From a virus: DNA of 42,174 nt. The notes below the pieces were generated by a model. It did not search any database. It saw only the letters and a list, made by a program, of their open reading frames with translations, and was not told where the DNA came from. The DNA lies in the IMG/VR virus record IMGVR_UViG_3300029532_000009, positions 1-42,174 of that record; one strand, written 5' to 3'. Below, piece after piece: positions 2,035 to 35,808 of this stretch; position 1 is the first letter of the stretch; every line of letters starts with the position of its first letter. The position numbers and the translations under genes are program-made.

Positions 2035-2058
2035 ACTCACAATTTGAGGTCTGGAATT

Positions 2059-2421
2059 ATGGCAAACCTGTACAACAATATCGAAAACCTTTGCAAAAAG
2101 CGCGGGGTCAACGTGACAACGATGTGCAGAGATTCCGGTGCAAGTCGTGGCTCTTTATCCGATTTGAAGTCTGGTAGAAAGCAGACATTGAAGTATGAGA
2201 CGCTTGAAAAAATTGCAAATTTTTTTGAGATAAGCGTTGAATCTTTGGTTTCTGGCAATGAAAGCCAAAAAGAAAAGCTCAATACCTTAGATGGCATTGA
2301 GCTTGAAAAATTGTCACCAGCCCGCCGGGCGCTGCTGGAAGCGCTGGAGGGCATGGATGACGAAAACATTATGAAAATTGTTCGGATTGCTCAGGCAGTT
2401 AAAAAGGAGCTTCCAGAGTGA
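2059..2421 (+). CDS. CI-like repressor, XRE-family HTH
   Basis: ATG 2059 follows GAGG. MANLYNNIENLCKKRGVNVTTMCRDSGASRGSLSDLKSGRKQTLKYETLEKIANFFEISVESL is a canonical XRE HTH. Divergent from the early operon. Confidence 0.75.
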   Translation: MANLYNNIENLCKKRGVNVTTMCRDSGASRGSLSDLKSGRKQTLKYETLEKIANFFEISVESLVSGNESQKEKLNTLDGIELEKLSPARRALLEALEGMDDENIMKIVRIAQAVKKELPE

Positions 2422-4982: not shown

Positions 4983-6116
4983 ATGAAATGCGTGAGACCA
5001 TGCTGCCGGAAGGAAATCCCGGATGGTGCTTCTTTTTGTCCGTGGTGCGGGAAGAAACAGCCGGAAGCCGCCCCGAAGCAAAGAAAAAAGCGCCGCCGTC
5101 CCAAGGGCAGCGGCAGCGTGTATAAACTGAGCGGGGAGCGGGCAAGACCGTATGTGGCGCTTACAGCCAAAAGGGATGTTCTGGGAACGTTTGAAACGGC
5201 AGGCGAAGCAGTACAAGCGCTGGACGCTTACAACGCCCAGAACACCCCCGCTGCGCTTCTGAAATGCACCTTTGCAGATGCCTATACCCAATGGAAATCG
5301 CAGCCCAAATTTGACAAGCTCAGCACGGACATGCAAAAGGGGTACGAGCTGGCCTATGCAAAGGCTGCGCCGCTATACGACCGACAATTGCGGGACTTGA
5401 AAGCGGCAGATTATCAACAAGTGATTGACCAGATGGTTGAAAAGGGACTTTCCCGCAGCTCCTGCGAAAAGCAGCGCACGCTTTTCAGCCAGATCTGCGA
5501 GTGGGCAATGGCGCAGGACATCATAAACAAAAATTACGCCATGCTGCTGCAGCTCCCGGCGGCTACAGGAAAAGCGGAGCGCACTCTGACTGCAGCCGAG
5601 ATAGAGCAGATCAGCATCTACCAGAATGACCCAAAATTCGGGCAGACGGCTCAGATCGCCATGGTTTTGCTGTACACCGGTATGCGCATTGATGAACTGC
5701 TCTCTATGCGCTGTGAGGACGTGCATCTGAAGGAGCACTATATGCAGGGCGGCGAAAAGACCGAAGCAGGCAAAAACCGCATTATCCCGATTCTTGAACC
5801 GATTTACAAGACGGTAGCTTTTTGGATGCTGAACAGCGGGTGCGAATGGCTGATACCATCCAAGACCGGCACAAAGCTGGACAAACGCAATGTGGCTACA
5901 AAATTCCGTGCCCTGATGCAGGAATGCCACATAGAGGGTGTGCATCCGCATACGCTGCGCCACACGGCCAGCAGCAAGATGGTGGAGTGCGGCCTGGAAA
6001 AGACCGCCGTGCAGGCCATCTTGGGCCACAAAAATTTCTCCACCACAGCAAACAAGTACGTCTCCCACAATGACCCGAATTATCTGTTGCAGGAAATGCG
6101 AAAGATGAAGTATTGA
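4983..6116 (+). CDS. int: Tyrosine integrase with N-terminal zinc-ribbon
   Basis: 377 aa with AAGGAG upstream. Catalytic signature YTGMRIDELLSM (R), HTLRHTASS (H-x-x-R) and LGHKNFSTTANKYV (H...Y). N-terminal motif CCRKEIPDGASFCPWCG. Confidence 0.9.
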   Translation: MKCVRPCCRKEIPDGASFCPWCGKKQPEAAPKQRKKRRRPKGSGSVYKLSGERARPYVALTAKRDVLGTFETAGEAVQALDAYNAQNTPAALLKCTFADAYTQWKSQPKFDKLSTDMQKGYELAYAKAAPLYDRQLRDLKAADYQQVIDQMVEKGLSRSSCEKQRTLFSQICEWAMAQDIINKNYAMLLQLPAATGKAERTLTAAEIEQISIYQNDPKFGQTAQIAMVLLYTGMRIDELLSMRCEDVHLKEHYMQGGEKTEAGKNRIIPILEPIYKTVAFWMLNSGCEWLIPSKTGTKLDKRNVATKFRALMQECHIEGVHPHTLRHTASSKMVECGLEKTAVQAILGHKNFSTTANKYVSHNDPNYLLQEMRKMKY

Positions 6117-6140
6117 TTTGTTAGATTGTTTGTTAGATTG
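6117..6140 (+). repeat. Tandem 12-nt direct repeat tttgttagattg x2 (candidate arm-type integrase binding sites)
   Basis: Two perfect copies at 6117-6128 and 6129-6140, immediately after the int stop and 90 nt from the attP core. Confidence 0.5.
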
Positions 6141-6185
6141 TCACGTTCATTCAGGAGATTTTAAGGAATTTCAAGCAAAAAGAAA

Positions 6186-6228
6186 AACGCACGGACGATT
6201 CGTTTTAATCGTTCGTGCGTTTATTTTT
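6186..6228 (+). terminator. Rho-independent terminator of the integrase operon
   Basis: 15-bp stem aacgcacggacgatt/aatcgttcgtgcgtt (one G:U pair), loop cgtttt, then tatttttgg. Confidence 0.85.
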
Positions 6229-6275
6229 GGAGCTGGTGACAGGAGTTGAACCTGCAACCCACTGATTACAAATCA
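6228..6275 (-). other. attP core: 3' portion of a tRNA-Thr(UGU) gene
   Basis: The minus strand reads gatTTTGTAAtcagtgggttgcaggttcaactcctgtcaccagctCCA. This gives anticodon loop TTTGTAA, a T arm gcagg/ttcaact/cctgt, the acceptor 3' strand and CCA. No 5' half (D arm, acceptor 5' strand) is present. Confidence 0.8.
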
Positions 6276-6389
6276 AATTTATTTTACGTTTTACCGTAAA
6301 TAATTATTTATCTGTTGGCTTTCCGTTAGACTATATATCCCATGCCCAAACGTTGAAGCCTATGTGAAAATAGCACACTCTATGTCTTT

Positions 6390-6740
6390 TTACAAGTCGC
6401 TTATCTTTCGCATTACGAGCTCATACTCTTTTGGGTACACCAGCTTTATTGCCTTCATGTGCTCGTCAAGCACCTGCATCAGACCGCCAAAAGGAACAGA
6501 GCTGGCAGCCGCCACAAAGTCGCTTTGCGGTTCCGTTGCCGTGGAGTACGCTGCCGCATAAGTCGCGGGTGGCAGTGCCTGGATCTGCGTTTCAGGTGCG
6601 TGTGTTTCTTCCAGCTCGTCCCGCACAGTACAAAGGGCGGCAAGCTTGTTGACGCTCTGCCAGCTGGTTTCCTCGCACTTGAGCTTGCGGATATGCTCGT
6701 TGATCTCGTCAATGTCCACGCCTGCTGCCCCCTTCCTCAT
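6390..6740 (-). CDS. Hypothetical protein (116 aa)
   Basis: ATG overlaps the upstream stop (ATGA). MRKGAAGVDIDEINEHIRKLKCEETSWQSVNKLAALCTVRDELEE... Confidence 0.5.
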   Translation of the reverse strand: MRKGAAGVDIDEINEHIRKLKCEETSWQSVNKLAALCTVRDELEETHAPETQIQALPPATYAAAYSTATEPQSDFVAAASSVPFGGLMQVLDEHMKAIKLVYPKEYELVMRKISDL

Positions 6741-7138
6741 GCGTTCCGCAAGATGTCAGCGGCCCGCTTGTATGCATCGCGCTCTGCGCCGGTGGCCTCC
6801 TGCATCATGTCCTCGATGTCAGAGATCATGCGCTCACGGCCATCCGTGCGGGAGTAATGCCCACGAACATAGTGACGGCCTCGGTTGGCATAGCTGCTGC
6901 CCCGGTTGTAACCGTTTCCGGCATCGTGGCCGAAAGTCCCACGCATGTCAGCAGCCCACTCGCCCGCACGACTGTACTCGCCGCCCTCACAGTAATCCTC
7001 GATGCGGTGGATGTCCAAAATGATATCCACAATCTCGCCGATCATCTCAACATCACCCGGGGAACGGTTCTTTTTGTCGGTCAGTTCCATGAGCTCGTCG
7101 CACATCTCATCCTTCAGGTGATTCAGTTTATCCAGCAT
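6737..7138 (-). CDS. Hypothetical protein with a central Gly/Arg/Tyr-rich segment (133 aa)
   Basis: AAAGGAG RBS upstream. ...GGEYSRAGEWAADMRGTFGHDAGNGYNRGSSYANRGRHYVRGHYSRTDGRE... flanked by acidic helices. Confidence 0.55.
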   Translation of the reverse strand: MLDKLNHLKDEMCDELMELTDKKNRSPGDVEMIGEIVDIILDIHRIEDYCEGGEYSRAGEWAADMRGTFGHDAGNGYNRGSSYANRGRHYVRGHYSRTDGRERMISDIEDMMQEATGAERDAYKRAADILRNA

Positions 7139-7154
7139 GGCTTTATCTCCTTTC

Positions 7155-7577
7155 TTATGCTACCCGCTCAACGATCAGATTGCTGTTTGCAATGCTGACT
7201 GCCTGCGTACTGGTATTTTTAACCGCCACGGTCACGCAGCAGCCGCGCGGCACCTCGATGAACGCGGCCACGAAAACGTTGAAGTAGTTTTCGACTGCAG
7301 CAGGTGTGACAATGGCGGTCGCGCTATTGAGTGCCTCACCGCCGACAGACAGCGCCACGGAAACGGGCCCCACGGTGCCGCCGGTGGGAATGGCGATATT
7401 TCCGCCAAAGCTCACCTTGAAGCGGGCTTTGCATTGATTGGTCAGACCGCGCAGGGTCACGAGGCCGCTGCCCTCACGGTGCATGATGCAGGCAGGGGCT
7501 TTCACCGCGGTCTCGGTCAGGGGAAGGTTTTCACCTGCCGCCACGCTGACGGTGTTAAAGTTGCTAAATTCAGCCAT
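7155..7577 (-). CDS. Beta-rich protein resembling by eye the C1q/TNF-like C-terminal domain of exosporium BclA-type proteins
   Basis: ATG 7577 follows AAAGGAG (the track ORF starts 18 nt upstream). MAEFSNFNTVSVAAGENLPLTETAVKAP...FKVSFGGNIAIPTGGTVGPVSVALSVGGEALNSAT...VAVKNTSTQAVSIANSNLIVERVA. Separate transcription unit after a terminator. Confidence 0.35.
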   Translation of the reverse strand: MAEFSNFNTVSVAAGENLPLTETAVKAPACIMHREGSGLVTLRGLTNQCKARFKVSFGGNIAIPTGGTVGPVSVALSVGGEALNSATAIVTPAAVENYFNVFVAAFIEVPRGCCVTVAVKNTSTQAVSIANSNLIVERVA

Positions 7578-8532: not shown

Positions 8533-8757
8533 TTAATGAAGAAACTGCTGAAACTGTTTCGCCATCGCCTGTAATTGGTTCAGCTGGTTTTGTGACATTT
8601 TGCCGGATTGCAGCAGCTTTTGCACTTCTGCTTTTGGGTCGCCTTGAAAGTTTGCACGGAACTGCTGGAACTGCTGCATCAGCTGACCAAACTGACCCAT
8701 AGGGCCGGACATGGCGGGCATACCGCCGCTCAGAACGTTAAAAAGAGGGTTTGACAT
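8533..8757 (-). CDS. Small Gln-rich protein (74 aa, 16 Q)
   Basis: GGAGG RBS. MSNPLFNVLSGGMPAMSGPMGQFGQLMQQFQQFRANFQGDPKAEVQKLLQSGKMSQNQLNQLQAMAKQFQQFLH. Confidence 0.55.
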   Translation of the reverse strand: MSNPLFNVLSGGMPAMSGPMGQFGQLMQQFQQFRANFQGDPKAEVQKLLQSGKMSQNQLNQLQAMAKQFQQFLH

Positions 8758-8759
8758 AA

Positions 8760-9209
8760 TTACTTGGCCTCCGTTTCAGGCTTTGTGGGCTCTTGCTTTT
8801 CCAGCGCCGCACAGCGGGCTGCCAGCGCGTTAAACTCTGCCCGGGTGACAAACTCCACGCCAGACTGCTGCGCCGTTTGTGGCGGCGTTTTTGCGGCTGT
8901 GGTGCGCTCCTTGTAGTCAAACACCCGGAGGGGAAGCGGCATACCGCTTGCATCGGTGCTTTTGATGTAAAACGCGCTGTTTTCGCTGTCCATCAGGAGC
9001 ACGCTGTTTCCTGCGGCAACCATGTATGCTTTTGCGCCCTCCTCGCCCTGCACCCAGATGATGGAGGGCGTAGCCTGTGCTGTCTGGGCTGTCGGCTGCT
9101 GCATCATGGGAGACTGATAGCCCACTCCCTGCCTGAGTTGAGTGAGGTTGTCCGGCATTGGCTGGCCGTAGTATGTCGGCATCTGATACGCATACGGATT
9201 GTAAGGCAT
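8760..9209 (-). CDS. Hypothetical protein with Tyr/Pro/Gln-rich N-terminus (149 aa)
   Basis: AAGGAGG RBS. MPYNPYAYQMPTYYGQPMPDNLTQLRQGVGYQSPMMQQP..., then a folded-looking domain IIWVQGEEGAKAYMVAAGNSVLLMDSENSAFYIKS. Confidence 0.55.
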   Translation of the reverse strand: MPYNPYAYQMPTYYGQPMPDNLTQLRQGVGYQSPMMQQPTAQTAQATPSIIWVQGEEGAKAYMVAAGNSVLLMDSENSAFYIKSTDASGMPLPLRVFDYKERTTAAKTPPQTAQQSGVEFVTRAEFNALAARCAALEKQEPTKPETEAK

Positions 9210-25379: not shown

Positions 25380-25967
25380 TTAGTCCTTTCCGCCGCCTGT
25401 GAACAGGTCGGCATTTGCTGCAATGGCCGCCTGGCGTTCGCCAGCGTCCTTGATTGCAAAAATTTGCTCTTTGGTCATTTTGGAGCCGGTGTTGGTAGGC
25501 GGGGTGTCCACCTTTGCGCCGGTGGTCGTGGTCGTAGCCACAAAGTCGCCCCAGTCAGCTTTCAGGCTGTCGGTGTGCTTCTTGGCATCCTTGACCTCGC
25601 CCTTTTCGTCCAGCTCCAGCTTGTCAATGTCCTCGCCGGACAGCCGCACGACGCGGTCTGCGTACTTGTCCAGCACCCCGGCGGACTTCAGCAGCTCCCG
25701 GAACTTGGCTTCCTTGGCCGCGTGGGTGTCCTTCTTGGTCTGCTGGGCCTTGTAGTCGGTCAGCGCATTTTCAGCGGCCTGCTTGCCGCCGTTGGCCTCG
25801 TCCCGCTCTTTCTCGGCTTTGGCGAGGGCTGCGTTCTTCTCATCGAGCTGGTTCTGCAAAGTGTCCGTTTCCTCATGCAGCACGTCCAGAATTTTCTTGA
25901 GCTTGCCGCTGGTGTCGGTCGTTTCATCTTCCAGAATCGCCCGGAGAGTCTTGCGTTCGAGTGCCAT
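25380..25967 (-). CDS. Scaffolding protein
   Basis: 195 aa, highly charged coiled coil (LQNQLDEKNAALAKAEKERDEANG...), immediately upstream of the capsid gene. Confidence 0.75.
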   Translation of the reverse strand: MALERKTLRAILEDETTDTSGKLKKILDVLHEETDTLQNQLDEKNAALAKAEKERDEANGGKQAAENALTDYKAQQTKKDTHAAKEAKFRELLKSAGVLDKYADRVVRLSGEDIDKLELDEKGEVKDAKKHTDSLKADWGDFVATTTTTGAKVDTPPTNTGSKMTKEQIFAIKDAGERQAAIAANADLFTGGGKD

Positions 25968-26065
25968 GTGTTAGTCCTTTCTGCCCTTGCTCGGGCTGGC
26001 GTGCTCGCCATCGGATTTGTGAATTGCCTACGTTTTGTAGGCGGTTGCCGGACGTGCTGCCGGTG

Positions 26066-26142
26066 TGGTGCCGCTTGTGGGGCTTGAACCCACGGCCCCC
26101 GGATTAAAAGTCCGGTGCTCTCCCAGATTGAGCTAAAACGGC
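26066..26142 (-). tRNA. tRNA-Lys (anticodon UUU), CCA encoded
   Basis: Hand-folded cloverleaf: GCCGTTT TA GCTC AATCTGGGA GAGC A CCGGA CTTTTAA TCCGG GGGCC GTGGG TTCAAGC CCCAC AAGCGGC A CCA. Confidence 0.85.
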
Positions 26143-26188
26143 ATAAAAAAGCGGCTGACGCATTGCGCCAACCGCTGAGTATTCAGTT

Positions 26189-26419
26189 TTAGAGCGAAAA
26201 TTCACAGTCTGTGTCTGTAGGATAGTCCTGCGCTTCGGCCGGAACATAGACCAAAACAGAAATTTTGGCTTTACCCTCGCCGTATGCGTTATCACACATC
26301 TCCTGAAGCGCTTTACGTGCCTGAGCACCAGCCGAAAACAAATATTTGATTTTTTCGGCGTTTTCTTGTGCTTTTATAGCGGCTTGAAGCTGTTCGTTCC
26401 AAGTTTCGCTTTTGGCCAT
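26189..26419 (-). CDS. Hypothetical protein (76 aa)
   Basis: MAKSETWNEQLQAAIKAQENAEKIKYLFSAGAQARKALQEMCDNAYGEGK... Tightly follows the gp10-like gene. Confidence 0.5.
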   Translation of the reverse strand: MAKSETWNEQLQAAIKAQENAEKIKYLFSAGAQARKALQEMCDNAYGEGKAKISVLVYVPAEAQDYPTDTDCEFSL

Positions 26420-26421
26420 GC

Positions 26422-26874
26422 TTATACCTCCTTGTTCCCTTCTTCCACCGCGATCTCTCGCAGCTCGTCAATGTGATTCTCCACCGCCGGGCGCAGGAAC
26501 GGTCGGGCTTTCATACCCCGGGTAAAGTGCCACTTTCCGTTGAAGTCCTTCCAGACCCACGGCGTTTTTCGTCCGTTGCCCTTCTCGGCAAAGACGCCCG
26601 TGCCCAGCTCCACATACACGCTGTAAAACAGATTGCTGCCGATGGTCACGGTCTTTTTTGCGAGGTCGAGGGCGTAGGTCAGGCTCTGCTTGAGCGCACC
26701 GCCCACATAGCCCTGTATGCCTGTGCTTTCCTCCGTGCCAGTAGGCACAAGCAGCTGGGCGTAGTCCTGCACCTTCATGCCCCAGATGGTAAGCACCCGC
26801 TCCGCCCATGAATCCAGCGCCTCATGCAGCTGCGGGGTGTTGTCGGTGAATTTGATGTCGTAGTTGAAATTCAT
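26422..26874 (-). CDS. HK97 gp10-family protein (tail-completion type), displaced upstream of the scaffold gene
   Basis: ATG 26874 follows GGAG. ...GGALKQSLTYALDLAKKTVTIGSNLFYSVYVELGTG...KARPFLRPAVENH matches the gp10-family signature. Confidence 0.65.
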   Translation of the reverse strand: MNFNYDIKFTDNTPQLHEALDSWAERVLTIWGMKVQDYAQLLVPTGTEESTGIQGYVGGALKQSLTYALDLAKKTVTIGSNLFYSVYVELGTGVFAEKGNGRKTPWVWKDFNGKWHFTRGMKARPFLRPAVENHIDELREIAVEEGNKEV

Positions 26875-26890
26875 GCTATACTCCATGTAT

Positions 26891-26920
26891 AACAAAACCC
26901 CGCCCCGGTGTGGGGCAGGG
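26891..26920 (-). terminator. Rho-independent terminator after the KilAC antirepressor
   Basis: Stem ccccgcccc/ggggcaggg (one mismatch), followed on the minus strand by ttttgtt. Confidence 0.65.
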
Positions 26921-26932
26921 TCGGTGATTCAG

Positions 26933-27682
26933 TTACAGGTACAGCAGCCGGAACGTCTCACGGCCTTTGGGGGTGATGAGCGTCTGCACGCCGCTCCACT
27001 GGGTCTTGTCGTTCTTGGCTTCCTTGACCTCAAACAGGCCGTTGTTCTTGTCCTCACGGGGCAGCAACTTGCCTTTCTGGTCACGGTAAAGGAATTTCTT
27101 GTCCAGAAGCCACGCCACAAAGGCTTTTGGCTTGATGCCCAGCTCTTTGGCTGTCTCCCGGAAATTGGTCAACAGGTTGCGGTCAACCAGTTCGTCGAAG
27201 TATTCTGCCTTGGGCTGCATGATCTGCTTCTCCACGTTAAGCTGGCTATTCTGTGCGGTCAGCTCACAAATGCGGGCTTCCCGGTCTGCAAGGGTCTTGT
27301 TCGCCACAAGCAGCGCCTTTGCCATCAGCTCCTCCGGGGTGAGCTGCTCCTGCCCGGCGATGTACCCGCCGTTCTTGCGGATGGACGGCAGCACCTCGGA
27401 CGTGACCCACTTGCGGAACGGTTTGGCTTCCGGCTTGTCGCTGCGGAGAATGACGTTGTACAGGCCGCTCTCATTGATGATGTAGGTGGACTGCTTGCGA
27501 CCCATGCTGTCGATGACCTCGGTCTGACCGACCTCATCCTCATCCATGCGCTTGGCGGTGTCCGTGATGTGGGAAATGCCCAGCACCGTGCACACGTCCT
27601 TGAGAACAAACCACGGTTCGCCGTCCATCTCTACGGTGCGGACTTCGTTGGACTGGTAGTTGAAAATCTGAATATTAGACAT
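26933..27682 (-). CDS. Second antirepressor: Bro-N domain plus KilAC domain
   Basis: ATG 27682 (MSNIQIFNYQSNEVRTVEMDGEPWFVLKDVCTVLGI...INESGLYNVILRSDKPEAKPFRKWVTSEVLPSIRK). C-terminus PKAEYFDELVDRNLLTNFRETAKELGIKPKAFVAWLLDKKFLY is KilAC-like. Confidence 0.85.
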   Translation of the reverse strand: MSNIQIFNYQSNEVRTVEMDGEPWFVLKDVCTVLGISHITDTAKRMDEDEVGQTEVIDSMGRKQSTYIINESGLYNVILRSDKPEAKPFRKWVTSEVLPSIRKNGGYIAGQEQLTPEELMAKALLVANKTLADREARICELTAQNSQLNVEKQIMQPKAEYFDELVDRNLLTNFRETAKELGIKPKAFVAWLLDKKFLYRDQKGKLLPREDKNNGLFEVKEAKNDKTQWSGVQTLITPKGRETFRLLYL

Positions 27683-27965
27683 GAGAAATCTCCTTATTGC
27701 TTTCATCAATGATTGCGTTTACTTCTTTCTCCAGACCAGAGATGCTGCCGAACAGCGTGCACAGGATGGAATCATACATAGGCGCTTCATCCCACAGGCG
27801 GGAAACATCACGCTCGTTGCGTGGGCGGATCAGATCATCCGTCTTGTGGGTCTCCTCAAACCAGTTTGCAAAGATGTTCAACAGGTTGTGCATCGTCTGG
27901 AGCTCACCGGAAACCATGTCCAACTCAAACTCTGCGCTTGCGATTTTGCTTGTTTGCATCATCAT
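27675..27965 (-). CDS. Hypothetical protein (96 aa)
   Basis: GAGG RBS. MMMQTSKIASAEFELDMVSGELQTMHNLLNIFANWFEETHKTDDLIRPRNERD... Its stop overlaps the antirepressor start. Confidence 0.55.
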   Translation of the reverse strand: MMMQTSKIASAEFELDMVSGELQTMHNLLNIFANWFEETHKTDDLIRPRNERDVSRLWDEAPMYDSILCTLFGSISGLEKEVNAIIDESNKEISHV

Positions 27966-27980
27966 GACCTCACATTTTAC

Positions 27981-28009
27981 TTGACTTTTTCTTATAAATA
28001 AAATAAAAT
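27981..28009 (+). promoter_or_regulatory. Orphan plus-strand promoter TTGACT-N17-TAAAAT
   Basis: TTGACT 27981-27986 and TAAAAT 28004-28009 with an exact 17-nt AT-rich spacer. Bracketed by an 11-bp inverted repeat (27969-27979 / 28004-28014). Confidence 0.55.
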
Positions 28010-28051
28010 GTGAGTAAGAGGAGCTTTTTGAATACGGTTTCTCTGGCTTAC

Positions 28052-28090
28052 GAGTGGTTAGCTATGGCGAGTAGCTAACCACTCTTTTTT
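28052..28090 (+). terminator. Strong plus-strand rho-independent terminator about 40 nt after the orphan promoter
   Basis: Perfect 13-bp stem gagtggttagcta/tagctaaccactc, loop tggcgag, then tttttt. Confidence 0.8.
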
Positions 28091-28153
28091 GTACTGTTCG
28101 AACTTCTTGCGCTGTTCTTCACGGTTCAGCTTCTTGAAATCCTTGAACTTCAT
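28058..28153 (-). CDS. Tiny basic ORF (31 aa), uncertain
   Basis: ATG 28153 lies 6 nt after AAAGGAGG. MKFKDFKKLNREEQRKKFEQYKKEWLATRHS. Its 3' end runs through the terminator hairpin. Confidence 0.35.
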   Translation of the reverse strand: MKFKDFKKLNREEQRKKFEQYKKEWLATRHS

Positions 28154-28205
28154 GGGCGTCCTCCTTTCCGCCCCTCTTGCTCACAAGAATATTATAGCAC
28201 TAATA

Positions 28206-28295
28206 TTCGTGCAAGTATATTGACGTTTTGCACTAATTTTAGTCTTTTCTTTGGTTATTTTTGCACTTGTTTTCGTGCAAATTATCCTGTATACT
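28206..28295 (+). promoter_or_regulatory. Promoter/operator region of the twin-HTH operon
   Basis: TTGTTT 28267-28272, N17, TATACT 28290-28295. Duplicated motifs ttcgtgcaa (28206-28214, 28272-28280) and ttttgcact (28226-28234, 28259-28267). Confidence 0.5.
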
Positions 28296-28319
28296 AAAGA
28301 TGTAATAGGAGGTGAGCTT

Positions 28320-28535
28320 ATGCCGTTGAAGTTCAAAATAAATGTCCTTGATGCGTTGAAACAAGCCGGTTACAACACGTCGAGAATCCGTCAGGAAAAT
28401 CTGTTGAGCCAGTCAACCTTGCAAAAATTGCGTGATGGTGGGCAACTTTCGTGGTCGAACCTTGAAACAATTTGCAGGTTGCTTGAATGCCAGCCGGGGG
28501 ACATACTTGAATATATCCCGTTCGAAACAGAATGA
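28320..28535 (+). CDS. Small XRE-type HTH regulator (71 aa)
   Basis: ATG 28320 follows AGGAGGTG. MPLKFKINVLDALKQAGYNTSRIRQENLLSQSTLQKLRDGGQLSWSNLETICRLLECQPGDILEYIP. Confidence 0.7.
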   Translation: MPLKFKINVLDALKQAGYNTSRIRQENLLSQSTLQKLRDGGQLSWSNLETICRLLECQPGDILEYIPFETE

Positions 28536-28545
28536 GGTGTTAGAA

Positions 28546-28764
28546 ATGTCGATAAGCTATCACTTAAAGGCCTTGCTCGCAGACGCAAACATGACGCAAA
28601 AGGAACTTGCCGAAGTAACCGGGATTCGTCCCCCAACTATCTCGGCTCTTTGCCTTGGAACGGTCAAACAGCTCCCCATCGGGGTTCTTGAAAAAATTTG
28701 CACCGTTCTGAATTGCCAGCCCGGCGACATACTGGAATATGTGCCGGATAAATCCGAACAGTGA
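28546..28764 (+). CDS. Small XRE-type HTH regulator, paralogue of the previous gene (72 aa)
   Basis: ATG 28546 follows GAGGTG. MSISYHLKALLADANMTQKELAEVTGIRPPTISALCLGTVKQLPIGVLEKICTVLNCQPGDILEYVP. Confidence 0.7.
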   Translation: MSISYHLKALLADANMTQKELAEVTGIRPPTISALCLGTVKQLPIGVLEKICTVLNCQPGDILEYVPDKSEQ

Positions 28765-28771
28765 CCCTACA

Positions 28772-28800
28772 CCCTGCCGGGAGGCAGGGCTTTATTTTTA
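28772..28800 (+). terminator. Terminator between convergent HTH operon and MuF gene
   Basis: Stem ccctgcc/ggcaggg, loop ggga, then ctttattttta. Confidence 0.7.
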
Positions 28801-28807
28801 TACTCAA

Positions 28808-29842
28808 TCATTTTACCTTCTCCTTTTTCTTGCGCTCCCGCTCTTTCGCCCACCACATTTGTTCGGCTTCCGTGCCGCCCTTGGATTTATACCACTCGGT
28901 GTAATCCATGACGGGGGTGGTCTCTTTGGTCACATTGTCTCTCTGCATGGCGTTCTGCCTGGGATACTTGCCCAGAGCAGAGGACAGCACACAGCGGCAG
29001 TGGTAAACCATCTCCGGCGCTGCGTTGGGGTCTCCGGGGCGCTGAATCTCGTAGCCCATGACTTTGAACGGCTCGTCAAGCTCTGCCGTCTGCTGGTCAA
29101 GCAGGCGGTGCATTTCACGGGTGCGGTAGTCGTGGGTGGAGTTCCACCGCTTTTTGACCTCGATGCCCAAAGCCTGGGCGTTGCGCATTTGCTGCAATGC
29201 CCCGGCGTTCTGAGCGCCTGTGAGCGCCGTGATGGCGTTGTTCATGGCCCAGTGGATCTCTGTGTCTGCCATGCCGTTTACGGCCTGCACGGCGATGTCG
29301 TGGACGCTCTTGCCCTGCACGATGCCTTGCATGACGTAGCGGTTGAACACCCGGGCGTCATAGGTGCGGTTGCTCTCGCTCTTGATGCGCTTGTTTGGCA
29401 CCAGCTTGGGGTTTTCCTTCAGCAGCAGCTTGACTGCTTCGGTATTGTACAGGGTCAGCCCGAACGTCACGCCTGCGGCCTGTTCCAGCTCGTAGAAGGT
29501 CCAGTTTGCGCCAAAGGAAAAGATGTTGTATTGCTCGTCCCGGGCCAGCTTGTAGGCCGTCTCTTGGGCTTTGGTGCAGGTCTGGGTGATGCCGTCCAGC
29601 TTTGCCCGCATCAAATCGGACTGAAAGACCTGATTTTGCAGCCAGATGCGGTAATCCTCTTCGGTGATCTCGCCTGCATCCAGCTGCGCCCGCTTGCGCT
29701 CGTCCAACGCTCGGTACTTTCCAAGAAACTCGGTGAGCTGCTCGGTCATTTCCCGGCGGGCTGTGCCGTATACCCGCAAAATGCGGCGGCGCAGGCGGTT
29801 CAGCTGCCGGGTGGTGATGCGGTCAAGATCTGTTTTCTTCAT
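28808..29842 (-). CDS. Minor head protein, Mu F / SPP1 gp7 family
   Basis: 344 aa after the portal region. RWNSTHDYRTREMHRLLDQQTAELDEPF...RPGDPNAAPEMVYHCRCV is the Mu-F signature. Confidence 0.8.
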   Translation of the reverse strand: MKKTDLDRITTRQLNRLRRRILRVYGTARREMTEQLTEFLGKYRALDERKRAQLDAGEITEEDYRIWLQNQVFQSDLMRAKLDGITQTCTKAQETAYKLARDEQYNIFSFGANWTFYELEQAAGVTFGLTLYNTEAVKLLLKENPKLVPNKRIKSESNRTYDARVFNRYVMQGIVQGKSVHDIAVQAVNGMADTEIHWAMNNAITALTGAQNAGALQQMRNAQALGIEVKKRWNSTHDYRTREMHRLLDQQTAELDEPFKVMGYEIQRPGDPNAAPEMVYHCRCVLSSALGKYPRQNAMQRDNVTKETTPVMDYTEWYKSKGGTEAEQMWWAKERERKKKEKVK

Positions 29843-30626
29843 GGCTGTTCAGATACTCCACAATAGCACGCTCCCGGGCGGACAGTTCCCATTTTGTGGC
29901 CGCAGCCCTTTCAGCCGCAGCCCTTTCAGCCGCAGCCCTTTCAGCCGCAGCACAATCAGACAGCAGCAGACCTGAACCAAAAATCGTTTTCCCCGTGGAG
30001 CGTTGTGAATCCAGCGCATAAATTGGAGCGCAGTCCTTTTTATGAATTTTGAAATCCACACCGTAATGGCTGTATCGTTGTAGCATTGCAGCCGTTACAA
30101 TATTATCCGGGTATGTATACTTTGGCAGCTGTACTGTTTTGGTGCGTCTAAGGCGTTCTACCTCATCGTTTACCAGCTTCGTAAGGCGAGGTTCTGTTTG
30201 CGCTATGATGTCCCCGCCGTAGCTGGTCACAAAACTTGTTCTGACGATTGCACCGTTTTCGTACTCGATACTACAGTCGCAAATGATATGGTTCATCCGC
30301 ATATTATTTGCTCTTCCAGAAAACGCTGTCAAAGATGGAGCGAATAGGAAGAACGGAATGCCACGATCGAGATAGAACCCGCAGATTCGGGACAGGATTG
30401 AAAACGGTGGGTTGTCCAGAACAACGGCACCCTCCGGGTAGTCGAAATTCTCATAATCGCCGCCGGGATAAAATGGACGCACAATTTTGGCCGGGTCGAT
30501 GCCGTACTCCTTGCAGGCCCAGTCCCGGATAACAGCGTATACGCTAGGCGGTGTATAGCAGTCGTCAGTAGTCTTTTTCGGCTTGAACTTCTCCACGAAC
30601 TCTTCATAGGTTTCATTCGCTGCCAT
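29823..30626 (-). CDS. Putative N6-adenine DNA methyltransferase (DNPPF motif) with C-terminal AAAER repeats
   Basis: ATG 30626 overlaps the portal stop region. DDCYTPPSVYAVIRDW...VVLDNPPFSILSRI (motif IV (D/N)PP(F/Y)). C-terminus has AAAERAAAERAAAERAAA. Confidence 0.55.
   Translation of the reverse strand: MAANETYEEFVEKFKPKKTTDDCYTPPSVYAVIRDWACKEYGIDPAKIVRPFYPGGDYENFDYPEGAVVLDNPPFSILSRICGFYLDRGIPFFLFAPSLTAFSGRANNMRMNHIICDCSIEYENGAIVRTSFVTSYGGDIIAQTEPRLTKLVNDEVERLRRTKTVQLPKYTYPDNIVTAAMLQRYSHYGVDFKIHKKDCAPIYALDSQRSTGKTIFGSGLLLSDCAAAERAAAERAAAERAAATKWELSARERAIVEYLNSHEENRS
29899..29952. repeat. 15-nt tandem repeat gccgcagccctttca x3 plus a partial copy
   Basis: Perfect copies at 29899-29913, 29914-29928 and 29929-29943, with a partial copy to 29952. 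Encodes (AAAER)n on the minus strand. Confidence 0.9.
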
Positions 30627-32001
30627 TGTTTTCCTCCTCCTCGTCCACGGTCTCCCGCTCTGCACTCTCAGCCATCAGCGCCGCCCGAGCCTTTTCCTTT
30701 TGCTCCGGGGTCAGGTTTGGCAGTAGGTCAATGGCCATGTCCTGCCCAATGATCGCCGCCTCGGAGATTACTGTGCTGACCTGCTCTGCGGTGTTTACGA
30801 TCCGGCTCCGGTTGAATGTCGGCGTTGCGCTGCCAAAGCCAGCCAGCGCACAGATCTGACGAACAAAAGGTTTGATCTGAGCCTCGAAGTCGTCTGCGTT
30901 CTGGTTCATGGGTTCATAGGCTGCATCCAGATGATCGTTGGTGCTGTTTGCGCTGACACAATGCACGTCCAGACCGCCGAAATCCTCATAGACCCGGGTG
31001 TGCAGCAGCTCTAGCAGGGTCTGCCGGGCAGTCACCGGCACTTCGCTGGTGTATGGGGTGATCTTGCCGCCCTCGCTGGTGTCCGCACCGGCGATGTGGT
31101 AGAGGTTCAGCTTCGCAAGGAACTCCTGCAGTTCATCATCGGTCATTCCGTTGAAGTTTTCGCACAGCCAGTAAATCTGTGCGCAATCCTGCAAGTCGCT
31201 GCAGAAGCCGGACGTCACCAGATCGGTGTTGTCGATGTAGGCTTTCAGGCCTACGAGGGTGCTTTGATGCAGGTCGGATCCCCACAGCGGTACCACAGGC
31301 AGAGTGCTGTAGTTTTCCCCCTCCACGCTTTCCAGCCCGCCGCCGGGGGTGGAGACGGTCACGCTCTTGTATGCCTGCTTCGGGGCCGTCTCCTGCATAG
31401 TGCTGCCGATCCTGCTTTCCGTGTACTCGGTGTAACCGTCCTCTTCGTACAGGACATAGTGCATATCCGTGTCAGGATTCAGCCGCCAGAACCGCACCCC
31501 GGCCCGCATGGAGCCGGAGGTCTCATCGTACAGGGGCGCAAACTCGGTCAGCTTGAACACCACCAGATGGTCGTTGTTCCAGAAGCCAAAGCTCTCACCG
31601 TGGATTAGGGCAAAGTATCCGGCTTTCTGGATCTGCTCGTCAAATTCAGCCCCCAGTTTTTCTTTGTCCACGTCCTTATCCGCAAAGGTAACACCGTTGC
31701 CCAGAGAGTAGGTGGCACGCTGCTTGTTGAGCCGCCGGAACAGATTGCTCTTGACCATATCGGGCCGGGGAACATCCTGCCGTGTGTTCTTGGAAAGGCG
31801 TTTCAGCATAAAGGCGTAGGCTTGCGAAAAGCGCTCCGCGCCCGGGTTTTTCTGGGCGTCGTACAGGTCGGCGTCCAGCGCCATCCTGTAAGGGCCGGAA
31901 GCACAGTGCTGCTGCACGAACCGCCGGACAAAATCAGCCTGTTCCCCGGCGGCTTGCGCCTGCTGAAAGGTCTGGAATGTGTATACAGTGCTCAAAATCA
32001 A
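30613..32001 (-). CDS. Portal protein (SPP1 gp6-like)
   Basis: About 460 aa immediately after TerL. The start is a TTG (32001 or, with better spacing to GAGGGA, 31995). Confidence 0.85.
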   Translation of the reverse strand: MILSTVYTFQTFQQAQAAGEQADFVRRFVQQHCASGPYRMALDADLYDAQKNPGAERFSQAYAFMLKRLSKNTRQDVPRPDMVKSNLFRRLNKQRATYSLGNGVTFADKDVDKEKLGAEFDEQIQKAGYFALIHGESFGFWNNDHLVVFKLTEFAPLYDETSGSMRAGVRFWRLNPDTDMHYVLYEEDGYTEYTESRIGSTMQETAPKQAYKSVTVSTPGGGLESVEGENYSTLPVVPLWGSDLHQSTLVGLKAYIDNTDLVTSGFCSDLQDCAQIYWLCENFNGMTDDELQEFLAKLNLYHIAGADTSEGGKITPYTSEVPVTARQTLLELLHTRVYEDFGGLDVHCVSANSTNDHLDAAYEPMNQNADDFEAQIKPFVRQICALAGFGSATPTFNRSRIVNTAEQVSTVISEAAIIGQDMAIDLLPNLTPEQKEKARAALMAESAERETVDEEEENNGSE

Positions 32002-33843: not shown

Positions 33844-33919
33844 ATAAGAAAAACCAGCTTTGCTGCATGGAGCTCATCATGCAAAAAGCTGGTTTTTAAT
33901 CGTATTGTATCAGCAGCGG

Positions 33920-34199: not shown

Positions 34200-34335
34200 A
34201 GCCGCCAGCTGGATTTGAACCAGCACCCACGGAACGGATGTGCGCAGTGGCTGGCTGTGCAGTGATGTTCCCGTGGTGTCACCAACGTTGTCCCGCCTTA
34301 AATGGGCGGCGCTCTTCCAGTTGAGCTATGACGGC
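34200..34335 (-). ncRNA. 136-nt non-canonical tRNA-like gene (Lys-like anticodon loop with A33, about 68-nt insertion in the variable region)
   Basis: GCCGTCA TA GCTC AACTGGAA GAGC G CCGCC CATTTAA GGCGG [68 nt] GCTGG TTCAAAT CCAGC TGGCGGC T. The insertion contains a ~10-bp helix, CCACGGGAAC...GTTCCGTGG. Confidence 0.55.
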
Positions 34336-35033: not shown

Positions 35034-35531
35034 TCACCCGAGATTCAGTTCCGTGGTGATCTCAGCCAGCTGCTCAAGTCCGTCAGAAACCGCCTGAGAG
35101 ACCTGGCACGGCTTTGAATAGCCCACGATCCGGGCAATTTCTGCCTGCCTTTTTCCTTCCACAAAATACAGGATCAGGCAGCGGCTGCGCTTGATGGACG
35201 CCGGGTCTGCATGGAGCATGTAGGCCACTTCAATGGCTTTCTTCTGCATCTCGGCATACTGGCATTTCAGCTCGTGCAGATGCTGCTCGGCATCCATGGC
35301 GGCGTCGCTGTTCCGGCCTACCTTGTCGCTGGTTCCGGAGCGGCCGGGTGCGCCGGAAGTCCCGGATGTGGTTGAGGTGGCTGCGTTTTTCAGACTTGAG
35401 ATGCGTTCCTGCTGCTGGCGAATCAGCGCCCGCATTTTCGGCAGGCGCTCGAACCAGTCCCGCAGCTCTTTCACATTGCTGGCTTCGCCCGGCTTGGGTG
35501 CATCACTCTCAGGTATCCATGTGATGGTCAT
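35034..35531 (-). CDS. Late-gene regulator candidate, sigma-70 region-4-like HTH
   Basis: ATG 35531 follows AAAGGAG. Coiled-coil N-half. C-terminus SIKRSRCLILYFVEGKRQAEIARIVGYSKPCQVSQAVSDGLEQL. It is the last gene before the tRNA block and terminase. Confidence 0.55.
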   Translation of the reverse strand: MTITWIPESDAPKPGEASNVKELRDWFERLPKMRALIRQQQERISSLKNAATSTTSGTSGAPGRSGTSDKVGRNSDAAMDAEQHLHELKCQYAEMQKKAIEVAYMLHADPASIKRSRCLILYFVEGKRQAEIARIVGYSKPCQVSQAVSDGLEQLAEITTELNLG

Positions 35532-35808
35532 TATTACTCCTTTCTTCAAAATCGCAACAATATTCGGGCGGATTTATGTATCCTTCGTCTTTGTCACCGC
35601 TCTGGCAGATATAGTGATATCCGGATTCTGACGCCCCAAATTTTTGCTTTAAGAATACGCACCGGTCGCAAAGGCAAGGTTTGTTTCGATTGAGCCCCCG
35701 CTTGAAATATTCAATTGGGTTGCCATCGCTAAGAACAAACCAGATAAAAAGCCCTGCAAGTGTTGCCATGAACAGCGTGCTTGCAACTTCAAATAGCATA
35801 TCAAGCAT
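35509..35808 (-). CDS. Membrane-anchored Cys-rich small protein
   Basis: ATG 35808 follows GGAGG. TM helix ASTLFMATLAGLFIWFVL, then CLCDRCVFLK...YICQSGD...YCCDF. Confidence 0.5.
   Translation of the reverse strand: MLDMLFEVASTLFMATLAGLFIWFVLSDGNPIEYFKRGLNRNKPCLCDRCVFLKQKFGASESGYHYICQSGDKDEGYINPPEYCCDFEERSNNDHHMDT

Follow-up and report, generated by a model that had tools for sequence, protein, structure and literature searches.

The locus examined here lies in a 42,174-nt stretch of viral DNA (the window), where about 2.6 kb separates a MuF-like head gene from the scaffold gene, and it raises the question of whether this interval is one accessory island splitting the head module, as a sequence-only reading had proposed. 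The features listed in that reading are all present, at or near where it had placed them, and part of the interval is indeed low in GC (0.40-0.46 at 27,600-28,600 vs about 0.56 in the flanks). The source is a gut (Faecalibacterium-type) temperate phage that carries two swappable cargo slots, VR1 and VR2, inside its head-gene operon, the late genes being on the minus strand. The slots are framed and filled as follows.

28808-29842, minus strand: MuF-like head morphogenesis gene, upstream flank of VR1 (PF04233, 55 bits; phrog_2468)
26422-26874, minus strand: HK97-gp10-family neck/tail-completion gene, 150 aa (PF04883, TIGR01725), dividing the two slots
26189-26419, minus strand: o76, 76 aa, sole VR2 cargo in this phage (76-aa and 105-aa forms in relatives)
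26150-26176, minus strand: hairpin with U-run, -20.9 kcal/mol, ending 7 nt before the tRNA; kept in relatives
26066-26142, minus strand: tRNA-Lys(UUU), gene anticodon ttt, at a fixed backbone tRNA position
25380-25967, minus strand: scaffold gene, downstream flank (PF06810, 42.7 bits)

The gp10 gene matches both PF04883 (22.9 bits, cutoff 21.4) and TIGR01725 (32.6, cutoff 30.8); its true start is the ATG at 26874, and independent assemblies also call a 150-aa product. When the MuF-scaffold interval was compared across 128 distinct relatives, a gene of this family lay between MuF and scaffold in every one (128/128; 84-99% amino acid identity), and the distant Flavonifractor phage Chenonceau, whose layout matches that of the window, also has a gp10-like gene there. 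A tRNA (Lys, Thr or Met) is found about 75 nt upstream of scaffold, behind a conserved hairpin, in 58/58 relatives checked. Judged from these comparisons, the backbone includes the gp10-like gene, the site of the tRNA and the hairpin that precedes it; gp10, earlier described as displaced, departs from the textbook order of genes but has a fixed place in this lineage.

Among the same 128 relatives, VR1 (MuF to gp10) ranges from -26 to 2,079 bp and VR2 (gp10 to scaffold) from 193 to 1,783 bp; VR1 is empty in L083 and L042, where MuF abuts gp10 directly. Homology breakpoints against the relatives fall at about 28826, 26873, about 26420 and 26190. Since gp10, tRNA and hairpin are constant across relatives, the interval resolves into two independently varying cargo slots, with an autonomous cassette in the window's VR1 (about 26,875-28,826) and the 76-aa gene only in its VR2. 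This gene, o76, is a member of a real family of >100 clusters, with no match in Pfam, PHROG, PADLOC or PDB. Comparison with related phages thus preserves one half of the original proposal, namely a regulator/antirepressor module that varies, and does so separately from elements that do not. The other half, in which the whole 2.6 kb (the XRE genes, o31, o96, Ant, gp10, o76 and the tRNA) was acquired together and is gained or lost as a unit, has next to no chance of being right: all of these genes do lie between MuF and scaffold, in a partly low-GC region, but the reading is refuted by the constancy of gp10, tRNA and hairpin, by the independent contents of VR1 and VR2, and by L111, which has gp10 (99%) and o76 (100%) without the Ant cassette.

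A late-strand terminator-like hairpin is present in VR2 of 128/129 genomes and in VR1 of 36/112 genomes without the cassette. Whether late transcripts read through or start anew is therefore a real question, as had been pointed out, but one that is lineage-wide and not specific to this phage. We also note that the strong minus-strand hairpin abutting the tRNA (26176-26150) is a fourth one, missed earlier.

The cassette comprises a small, divergently transcribed XRE repressor, a 31-aa peptide (o31), a 94-96-aa protein (o96) coupled to a Bro-N+KilAC protein (Ant), and a terminator. It occupies VR1 in 16 of the 128 relatives, is carried by about 60 further IMG/VR contigs, and is also found in VR2, near the integrase, and upstream of TerL in L239. 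In the unrelated, cultured Faecalibacterium phage Aster it lies next to the integrase; in FP_Brigit a homologous Ant gene lies between portal and MuF, which is also inside the head module. The PHROG 130 Ant proteins of these phages (FP_Brigit gp33, Aster orf26) share the domain architecture of the window's protein, at 72-80% nucleotide identity. The o31/o96 leader is lacking in FP_Brigit; Aster shares the window's leader and differs in its 77-aa partner protein and in the site by the integrase. There are four repressor/operator types, each with its own palindromic operators over both promoters, and regulators and Ant N-terminal alleles reassort freely. The presence or absence of the cassette, its mobility and its modular reassortment are therefore matters of observation, and the suggestion that regulator and antirepressor form a self-contained accessory module, with its own divergent predicted promoters, operators and terminators, holds well. 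Some sister cassettes carry RHH regulators in place of XRE-HTH, and neighbouring slots of relatives carry conflict genes, for example an Acb2/Tad1-hairpin protein.

The regulatory half of the window's cassette contains the following features.

28195-28295, between the divergent genes: control region with operators and predicted promoters Pant and Pxre
28320-28535, plus strand: XRE1, type-A cassette repressor, 71 aa (HTH_26, 45.9 bits)
28546-28764, plus strand: XRE2, type-B cassette repressor, 72 aa, second gene of the regulator operon (HTH_26, 81.9 bits)
28772-28800, plus strand: intrinsic terminator of the XRE operon, convergent with MuF (hairpin 28772-28789, -15.3 kcal/mol)

The operators have the form GCAC-N8-GTGC, with O1 at 28197-28212, O3 at 28263-28278 and a half-site, O2, near 28228-28243, at 33-bp spacing. 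Both promoters are sequence predictions: Pant, on the minus strand, has a -10 TATAAT at 28196-28191 with an extended TG, and Pxre, on the plus strand, has a -10 TATACT at 28290-28295 and a -35 TTGTTT at 28267-28272. At the Pant site relatives have a near-consensus TTGACx-N17-TATAAT; in the window the -35 of Pant is poor, and a consensus scan did not pick the promoter up. XRE1 and the window's intergenic region travel together in L077 and L192, and XRE1 is, on sequence grounds, the cognate regulator of the adjacent operators. Repressor binding and promoter activity are what we infer from this layout: XRE1, transcribed away from the late genes, would bind the three operators, shut the facing Pant and limit its own promoter. 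With Pant shut, o31-o96-Ant would be silent in the lysogen; entry into a repressor-free cell, or late read-through from MuF, would allow its transcription. The terminator at 28772-28800 has no U-tract toward the late-gene direction.

The second regulator, XRE2, shares 99% identity with the protein that is the only regulator in L014 and L165-type cassettes. The two XRE genes had been called paralogous, which fits their C-terminal 30 aa (60% identity), the only part that aligns; the HTH parts have diverged. The cognate type-B operator, TACG-N5-CGTA, is absent throughout the 42,174 nt of the window, and the exact TACG-N6-CGTA palindromes at 1980 and 6285 may be candidate XRE2 targets in cis. Tandem repressors occur in this window and one other contig only. 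That rarity, the missing cognate operator, and a junction exactly at the type-B RBS, as expected if two cassette types recombined in the shared C-terminal block, would suit an origin of the second repressor, and perhaps of cassette parts too, as neutral recombination debris without function. We consider this the strongest of the alternatives, yet somewhat unlikely: XRE2 is intact, with its RBS preserved and the terminator of the operon after it, and is 99% identical to single copies that look functional. We prefer to regard XRE2 as a second repressor of another specificity class, which would silence matching cassettes of related superinfecting phages.

On the opposite strand, the leader of the o31-o96-Ant transcript has the features below.

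28170-28185, minus strand: predicted extreme 5' end of the mRNA, 5' arm of a long-range helix (duplex computation)
28058-28153, minus strand: o31, 31-aa basic micro-protein or leader ORF, with an AGGAGG RBS, enclosed by the long-range helix
28052-28090, plus strand: 14-bp hairpin over the o31 stop codon, T-run on the plus strand only (28052-28084, -23.4 kcal/mol)
27981-28009, plus strand: promoter-like TTGACT-17-TAAAAT, antisense to the operon (10/12 consensus matches)
27969-28024, minus strand: 3' arm of the long-range helix (28024-28009) and SD hairpin (28014-27996 with 27987-27969), by predicted folding

The mRNA 5' end copies the o96 SD region (UGUGAG...), and the long-range duplex has a computed energy of -25.1 kcal/mol, vs -12.8±2.5 in 200 shuffles. 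The helix occurs at the same position in four sequence variants with compensatory changes (-25 to -30 kcal/mol, reached by 0/200 shuffles), is kept in Aster too, and in RNAalifold includes pairs changed on both sides. The enclosed o31 is conserved at 87-100% or 77-100% amino acid identity, depending on the comparison, and type-B93 leaders have a 33-aa analogue with the same motif. The SD-sequestering hairpin is found in five unrelated sequence versions with the same structure in o96-family leaders, so that conservation of RNA structure, like the operators themselves, is directly seen; of 30 genes in the window, o96 has the SD that is least likely to be unpaired (probability 0.002). The hairpin's anti-SD arm shares 6 nt with the 3' arm of the long-range helix, and in the full-length fold the SD hairpin coexists with most of the long-range helix, the 'on' state being 4.7 kcal/mol less stable. 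In our model, the conserved leader structure hides the o96 RBS and competes with the long-range 5' helix, and the direction tentatively proposed for the switch is as follows: the default hairpin would bury the o96 RBS, adding a translational gate on o96 and the coupled Bro-N/KilAC protein, and the mRNA 5' end, by mimicking that RBS, could displace the hairpin through the long-range helix that encloses the 31-codon mini-ORF.

Three hairpins had been proposed as terminators bounding sub-units of the interval. All three exist, but the one at 28052-28090 works on the plus strand, antisense to o31-o96-Ant: because its T-run is on that strand only, it would terminate antisense transcripts, and it does not mark an edge of the o31-o96-Ant operon. 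Type-B93 leaders keep this hairpin structure with a different sequence. Together with the promoter-like element at 27981-28009 it predicts a possible antisense RNA of about 75 nt (about 28016-28090), possibly sar-like, and this convergent RNA may tip the balance back to 'off'. The motif TTGAC[AT]-17-TAAAAT is kept in all class-I leader variants, although its -10 lies inside a hairpin arm and its conservation may therefore be structural.

The leader opens onto the two larger proteins of the cassette and their terminator.

27675-27965, minus strand: o96, helical protein of 94-96 aa, orphan family; likely true start the third ATG, 27959, giving 94 aa
26933-27682, minus strand: Ant-type effector, 249 aa, Bro-N N-terminal and KilAC (ANT) C-terminal domains; true start ATG 27682
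26896-26922, minus strand: cassette terminator directly upstream of the gp10 RBS (-22.8 kcal/mol)

Homologues of o96 are also 94 aa long; 1.84 billion proteins contain only 21 representatives of the family, and an AF2 model gives a helical hairpin (pLDDT 70). The end of o96 and the start of Ant share 8 nt, a sign of translational coupling, and o96 is always coupled to an effector, be it Bro-N+KilAC, Bro-N+ORF6C-like, Rha+KilAC or an unrelated 224-aa protein with a weak homing-endonuclease match. The window's effector has strong Bro-N (92 bits) and ANT (84 bits) matches and falls in PHROG_130, anti-repressor Ant (E=1.5e-82); across relatives its N-terminal domain is mosaic (39-99% identity) and its C-terminal domain constant (95-100%). 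The term antirepressor is here a family annotation, and on this assignment the target that the protein would inactivate is a repressor of the CI type, encoded by the phage itself or by co-resident prophages. The CI-like protein of the window (1996-2421) has Pfam matches to HTH families only, with no peptidase domain found in Pfam.

Bro-N and Rha are DNA-binding modules, and other modes of action could apply. Another reading, to which we give perhaps a small share of the probability, makes the cassette a prophage-encoded defence, exclusion or toxin-type module, with Bro-N/KilAC as a growth-arresting (KilA-like) effector, the coupled o96 as its neutraliser or chaperone, and the XRE repressor and RNA switch holding the module silent until a competitor phage infects. 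The very tight, multilayer repression would suggest a harmful product, and the constant pairing of o96 with effectors of several kinds and the conflict genes in neighbouring slots of relatives count in favour of this reading; however, Ant, o96 and o31 are without a matching PADLOC model, antirepressor is the annotation given to the closest PHROGs, and the topology matches that of P22 immI. Less probable again is that Bro-N/KilAC serves the phage's own lytic programme as a DNA-binding transcription factor (a late or early-lytic co-regulator) and not as a repressor antagonist. Its DNA-binding domain and an orientation shared with the late genes, so that read-through would express it late, would be compatible with this, but 87% of close relatives go through the same life cycle without the gene, the gene occurs at several different genomic positions, and the early region of the window already has a paralogous Bro-N protein.

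To place the cassette among known systems, we turn to the reading that we favour, that of an antirepressor module. In P22, mnt, arc, sar and ant make up the ant moron, an insert in the late operon that is variable and has expression of its own; this immI region separates the head/ejection genes from the tailspike gene (PMC2629481; PMC11016777). Like immI, the cassette is an independently regulated antirepressor-type operon within a late structural operon, highly variable among phages with syntenic morphogenetic genes; its effector is co-oriented with the late genes and its maintenance repressor divergent, with overlapping operators and promoters, and late transcription must cross it before arriving at a structural gene further downstream that is essential. 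P22 has an established small convergent antisense RNA, for which the cassette offers no more than a possible counterpart. However, the two systems share no protein homology: XRE-HTH regulators stand here in place of Mnt/Arc, and the effector is Bro-N+KilAC, in place of P22_AR. In the window's cassette there is no RHH Arc/Mnt and no Arc equivalent, and the P22_AR_N score (21 bits) stays below the cutoff of 30.7. The cassette further differs in its o31 micro-ORF, its o96 partner and its SD-sequestering leader with a competing 5' helix, in its Gram-positive-type gut anaerobe host, in its site (MuF/neck as opposed to ejection proteins/tailspike), and in its four repressor specificities, two of them stacked in this phage.

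Post-transcriptional control of antirepressor synthesis is also a feature of P1/P7 immI (c4 antisense RNA, icd, ant), in which RNA pairing near the RBS of an upstream small ORF controls the coupled ant gene. The cassette resembles it in the predicted use of RNA pairing at an upstream ORF's RBS; the inhibitory pairing here would be mainly an intramolecular cis hairpin, with an antisense RNA only predicted, and the two share neither sequence nor protein homology.

A moron, in the sense of Hendrix and Juhala, is an autonomous transcription unit inserted between adjacent phage genes. The cassette agrees with this description in that MuF and gp10 are adjacent in some relatives, that it has its own predicted promoters and terminator, and that the GC content of its control region is deviant. 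Most other VR1 cargo (DUF4417, Zn-ribbon protein), in contrast, is packed in the late operon without signals of its own, so that the slot takes morons and plain operon passengers alike. We think it probable, overall, that the interval combines a backbone of MuF, gp10-like gene, hairpin, tRNA and scaffold with two independent cargo slots, and that the VR1 cassette is an autonomous, mobile, P22-ant-moron-like element. By analogy, it is best read as a Firmicute counterpart of the P22 ant moron, to which an RNA switch on translation would have been added.

The head genes of the window lie on the minus strand, and the 2.84-kb gap between the MuF and scaffold genes holds every element that a sequence-only reading had listed there. 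Comparison with relatives revised three gene starts: Ant, the Bro-N+KilAC protein, starts at ATG 27682 (MSNIQIF..., 249 aa), the HK97-gp10-family neck gene (gp10) at ATG 26874 (MNFNYD..., 150 aa), and o96, an ORF of 94-96 aa, probably at its third ATG, 27959.

Genes of the head operon
33308-31998, minus: TerL
32001-30613, minus: portal
between portal and MuF, minus: 280-aa protein (phrog_21498, function not assigned; AAAER repeated three times at 29898-29951)
29842-28808, minus: MuF
28,826 to 26,875 (approximate): cassette, with XRE1 and XRE2 (plus) facing o31, o96 and Ant (minus)
26874-26422, minus: gp10
25967-25380, minus: scaffold
25376-24477, minus: major capsid

Scaffold and MuF queries returned 160 related IMG/VR loci (90-99% amino acid identity), 128 of which are distinct over the MuF-scaffold interval. 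All 128 carry gp10 between MuF and scaffold (84-99% amino acid identity), a tRNA ends ~75 nt upstream of scaffold in each of the 58 relatives examined, and the hairpin preceding this tRNA is kept among relatives. The intervals on either side of gp10 vary independently across the 128, from -26 to 2,079 bp for that between MuF and gp10 (VR1) and from 193 to 1,783 bp for that between gp10 and scaffold (VR2). Nucleotide homology between the window and its relatives ends at ~28826 and is back at 26873, then ends near 26420 and is back at 26190; a break at 26190 in H1 (MT839403) is only apparent, as the H1 contig ends there. VR1 is empty in two relatives (L083 and L042), where gp10 directly adjoins MuF, and where it has the common "208-bp" length, a 77-aa zinc-ribbon gene is packed into the operon. 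In Chenonceau, a cultured, distant Flavonifractor phage, the order is MuF, a small ORF, Neck1 (gp10-like), eight small genes that include a "transcriptional regulator" and an "Arc-like repressor", scaffold and capsid. Because gp10, the tRNA and the hairpin are constant while VR1 and VR2 vary, the backbone reads MuF-VR1-gp10-VR2-hairpin-tRNA-scaffold, and the proposal that about 2.6 kb form a single island does not hold.

It follows that the gp10 gene previously described as displaced is a fixed feature of the lineage. Its family matches exceed the curated cutoffs by narrow margins (TIGR01725, 32.6 versus 30.8; PF04883, 22.9 versus 21.4; phrog_5, Neck1/tail completion, 7e-14), and the gene lies away from the head-tail joining cluster that follows the major capsid gene, the family's usual place; its position between MuF and scaffold is invariant in the 128 relatives and Chenonceau.

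The slots themselves hold a range of cargo. Among 129 genomes, VR1 carries DUF4417 in 69 and a Zn-ribbon protein in 39. VR2 cargo comprises a Phage_VG64-like lipoprotein (25 genomes), a DUF7201-like coiled coil (20), an Acb2/Tad1-hairpin-domain protein (19; PF24729, 42 bits) and a 224-aa protein (13). Cargo of VR1 and VR2 is seen, for example, at L018:6030-6653 and L022:7594-7809, respectively. To judge from these gene contents, VR1 and VR2 sample phage-host conflict genes. VR2 of the window holds a 76-aa ORF (o76) alone, from a family of over 100 clusters whose proteins come as 76-aa or 105-aa forms; one member is named from an F. prausnitzii MAG. The portal-MuF interval (29823-30665, minus) is a third variable slot, in which the 280-aa protein is swapped for ORFs of 42-71 aa in some relatives (L245, L248).

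What is accessory in VR1 of the window is the cassette, found at the same place in 16 of the 128 relatives and in ~60 further contigs recovered by an o96-based scan. The suggestion of a self-contained control module thus stands for this insert, an autonomous unit of regulator and antirepressor-type genes, and falls for gp10, the hairpin and the tRNA, which are backbone rather than cargo. At the sequence level, the cassette shows the hallmarks of a moron: its own predicted promoter and terminator, flanking genes that are adjacent in relatives, and deviant composition, with a GC content of 0.40-0.46 confined to 27,600-28,600, the regulatory region and small genes. Neither direct nor inverted repeats were found at its flanks, ruling out transposon-like insertion, and sequence comparison points to movement through recombination at gene boundaries. 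Inside the cassette, the 5' coding ends of o31, a 31-aa basic ORF (MKFK...), and XRE1 (MPLKFK...) are inverted copies of one 15-nt stretch on opposite strands (28143-28157 versus 28322-28336, 87% match).

The components of the cassette reassort extensively. Every copy carries a divergent HTH regulator of 71-93 aa belonging to one of four unrelated types, A-D, each with its own promoter/operator block, and these types are shuffled freely against the N-terminal alleles of Ant, which are 39-99% identical; its KilAC half is 95-100% identical or else swapped for a C-terminus like that of the window's Bro-N/ORF6C protein. Members of the o96 family are further paired with the 224-aa protein in VR2 and, in another genome region, with a Rha+KilAC protein under weak ribbon-helix-helix regulators, where four loci have an integrase gene within ~5.5 kb. 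In L239 the cassette lies upstream of TerL (~5428-7400). Several genomes (L192/L194; contigs 3300045988_014213, _010923, _026143, _027496 and _014251) contain two o96-type modules with different effectors: Bro-N/KilAC, Rha/KilAC or the 224-aa protein, which has a weak homing-endonuclease match. The cultured Faecalibacterium phage Aster has an XRE gene, o31, a 77-aa partner and Ant adjoining its integrase, and in FP_Brigit a homologous Ant lies between portal and MuF.

In the type A arrangement of the window, the HTH gene is divergent, and GCAC-N8-GTGC palindromes adjoin the predicted -10 of the o31-o96-Ant promoter (Pant) and cover the predicted -35 of the XRE promoter. The predicted operator O1 (28197-28212) abuts the extended -10 TGCTATAAT (28199-28191), and O3 (28263-28278) covers the XRE -35. 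Operator type tracks regulator type; Pant in types B-D is a near-consensus TTGACx-N17-TATAAT, and the architecture is otherwise the same. SOS control was ruled out, as Cheo/LexA boxes (GAAC-N4-GTTC) are rarer than chance and none lies near the promoters.

Predicted operators by regulator type
Type A: GCAC-N8-GTGC, two full sites and a half-site, 33 bp apart
Type B: TACG-N5-CGTA, three sites
Type D: AAAC-N6-GTTT, two sites

A type A regulator followed in tandem by one of type B was found only in the window and one other contig (L164/L174). The second gene, XRE2, is 99% identical to the single regulator of type B cassettes and keeps the type B RBS, but has lost the type B promoter/operator block; it shares only the C-terminal 30 residues with XRE1, and the recombination joint maps there. 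XRE2 has no evident cis target, since no TACG-N5-CGTA occurs in the whole 42 kb, with the caveat that exact TACG-N6-CGTA palindromes, one spacer base longer, are present at 1980-1993, just upstream of the start codon of the CI-like gene, and at 6285-6298. XRE2 may act in trans, on the type B cassettes that related phages carry, or may be a relic. That it is a CI paralogue acting on immC was ruled out, there being no similarity to CI.

In front of each o96-family gene, a hairpin buries the site of translation initiation, and the sequence of this hairpin differs by cassette class. For o96 of the window, the predicted unpaired probability of the Shine-Dalgarno (SD) sequence is 0.002, the next lowest among 30 genes being 0.17.

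Arms of the o96-family leader hairpin in its class variants
CUCACAUUUUA / UAAAAUGUGAG
ACCUCCAUUUUA / UAAAAUGUGAGGU
ACCUCUUA / UAAGAGGU
CCUCAAAUGUUU / AAACAUUUUUGAGG
UACCUUUA / UAAAGGUA
Aster leader: hairpin over the start codon

A segment overlapping the anti-SD also pairs with the extreme 5' end of the predicted mRNA, directly after the Pant -10. This long-range duplex has an energy of -25 to -30 kcal/mol, compared with shuffle means of -12 to -17, and none of 200 shuffles reached the observed value. Four sequence variants place the helix identically, their arms differing through compensatory changes, and RNAalifold likewise reports pairs changed on both sides. When applied to the 23 leaders, MAFFT/RNAalifold aligns the 5' arm wrongly across leader types, so that covariation statistics computed by column underrate the helix; duplex energy against shuffles was used instead. 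In the window, 28185-28170 pairs with 28024-28009, enclosing o31 and its stop-codon hairpin, and CUCACA (28014-28009) is common to the long helix and the SD hairpin. In the minimum free energy structure (-69.4 kcal/mol), the SD hairpin and most of the long helix are both present, and forcing the full helix costs 4.7 kcal/mol. Class-II leaders follow the same three-element logic at a shorter scale, with minimum free energy structures in either state. The o31 peptide is conserved even where its DNA has diverged, and Aster (8733-9200) shares Pant, the 5' arm, o31 and the long-range helix with the window, a 77-aa helical protein replacing o96.

All class-I variants keep, on the opposite strand, a promoter-like TTGAC[AT]-17-TAAAAT site and a terminator. 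In the window these are TTGACT-17-TAAAAT at 27981-28009 and the plus-strand terminator at 28052-28090, predicting an antisense RNA of ~75 nt (28016-28090) that spans part of the 3' arm of the long helix. The hairpin at 28052-28084 cannot terminate the o31-o96-Ant transcript because its T-run is on the plus strand. Covariance models from Rfam 15 run over 25900-28900 found tRNA only, with nothing else at E<=1 except a chance match overlapping the tRNA.

Ant matches PF02498 (Bro-N; 92.3 bits, cutoff 25.6), PF03374 (ANT/KilAC; 84 bits, cutoff 25.3) and phrog_130 (E=1.5e-82, residues 1-256). The first Bro-N protein of the window (Bro-N+ORF6C, 482-1246, minus) has only the Bro-N domain in common with it (47% identity); its gene is downstream of three small ORFs in an operon divergent from the CI-like gene. 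The o96 family has 21 representatives among 1.84 billion proteins. AlphaFold models of o96 (pLDDT 70, pTM 0.36) and o76 (pLDDT 64) are both below use for fold searches, and a PDB sequence search gave nothing meaningful for Ant, o96 or o76.

The "ant moron" of P22-like phages is inserted in the late operon, where it varies between phages and is expressed independently. It comprises a maintenance repressor transcribed divergently, an antirepressor gene that points the same way as the late genes and an antisense RNA, and lies upstream of an essential structural gene dependent on read-through (PMC2629481; PMC11016777). Our analysis of its topology indicates that the window cassette is most likely an analogue of this ant moron. 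Like P22 immI, it is an insert in a late structural operon that varies between phages whose morphogenetic genes are in synteny, and many alternative cargos take its slot in relatives. Its divergent HTH gene and putative operators at the predicted ant promoter would fit a maintenance repressor of the P22 kind. P22 sar is a small antisense RNA from a convergent promoter in the operon, and the predicted ~75-nt RNA could be its counterpart. However, there is no Arc-like (ribbon-helix-helix) second repressor co-transcribed upstream of ant: o31 and o96 have neither RHH nor HTH matches in Pfam, PHROGs or NCBIfam. Moreover, Ant scores 21 bits against P22_AR_N (cutoff 30.7) and does not match P22_AR_C, making the likeness to P22 Ant one of analogy and not of family membership.

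The cassette is of a known kind, a moron-type secondary immunity or antirepressor module within a late operon. Three features go beyond what is described: the reassorting repressor/operator classes with a stacked orphan repressor, the structurally conserved SD-sequestering leader with its mini-ORF, and the orphan partner protein o96. We infer that XRE1 would keep Pant off in lysogens, so that o31-o96-Ant would be transcribed on infection of non-immune cells or through read-through of the late transcript; the leader would then add a threshold at the level of translation, for o96 as well as for the Bro-N/KilAC protein coupled to it, and the latter would antagonise CI-type repressors. The window's CI-like protein (141 aa, 1996-2421, plus) matches only HTH families in Pfam, with no peptidase match, which, with the lack of LexA boxes, fits induction through an antirepressor.

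A broader joint reading can be offered only tentatively. The leader (a 5'-terminal SD mimic, mini-ORF, anti-SD, SD and possibly a sar-like antisense RNA) could represent a new class of translational riboregulator gating antirepressor-type effectors of gut Oscillospiraceae phages, XRE2 could be a weapon that silences antirepressor cassettes of rival close relatives, and the four repressor/operator classes could be immunity groups in an arms race inside the head operon. Less probable than the antirepressor reading is a toxin or exclusion module in which o96 would neutralise a KilA-like effector; PADLOC defence models gave no match for Ant, o96, XRE1, o76, gp10 or the 280-aa protein and only generic HTH matches for XRE2 (E 5e-4 to 1e-2).

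The question of whether late transcription reads through terminators or restarts was a valid one, but it concerns the backbone and not this insert in particular: late-strand terminator-like hairpins occur in VR2 of 128 of 129 genomes and in VR1 of 36 of 112 non-carriers. In the window, a strong minus-strand hairpin with a U-run (26176-26150) lies only 7 nt before the tRNA, so that expression of the tRNA and scaffold-capsid genes must depend on read-through or processing. No sigma-70-type restart promoter was predicted on the late strand between 29,800 and 24,000, and the sequences downstream of the terminators, searched for a late-promoter motif in common, share only tRNA similarity. One candidate for a late regulator is a weak sigma-70 region-4-like protein whose gene (35034-35549, minus) is upstream of the tRNA/terminase region.

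The window has two tRNA-Lys(ttt) genes, a tRNA-Trp and a fourth tRNA at 34200-34335 (minus), which scores 46 bits with Rfam, was missed by ARAGORN and is 136 nt long, implying an insertion of ~60 nt. Both tRNA-Lys genes are directly preceded, a few nt before the mature 5' end, by a strong U-run hairpin (26150-26176 and 33844-33897, minus), an arrangement that is odd for a terminator and suggests read-through or processing. The identity of the tRNA upstream of scaffold differs among near-identical backbones, being Lys(ttt) in 21, Thr(tgt) in 30 and Met(cat) in 7 of 58 (L004-L083). Identities of 87-90% between some Thr alleles and the Lys gene suggest that the anticodon has switched, and these tRNAs possibly serve as a supply against tRNA-targeting defences.

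A scan of GTDB representative genomes gave no o96 relative and a single MuF relative, in a Clostridiales MAG; the Faecalibacterium-type host is accordingly assigned from a source name (F. prausnitzii MAG) and from nucleotide similarity to Faecalibacterium phages. In human gut viromes the lineage is very frequent (IMG/VR has hundreds of nearly identical backbones), and its hosts, Faecalibacterium-type anaerobes, are key commensals in which prophage induction is poorly understood. Since the CI-like repressor matches HTH families alone and no peptidase domain, a repressor-controlled antirepressor-type cassette is a plausible route for induction and prophage cross-talk. By comparison of genomes, the head operon has two cargo hot spots, and probably three or four, whose contents (antirepressor-type cassettes, an Acb2/Tad1-like protein, lipoproteins, DUF4417 and variable tRNAs) make them convenient for mining conflict genes. 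The conserved leader RNA offers a concrete, mutable structure for studying translational control in organisms that are hard to handle, and because cultured Aster has the same leader, experiments are feasible in a usable model.
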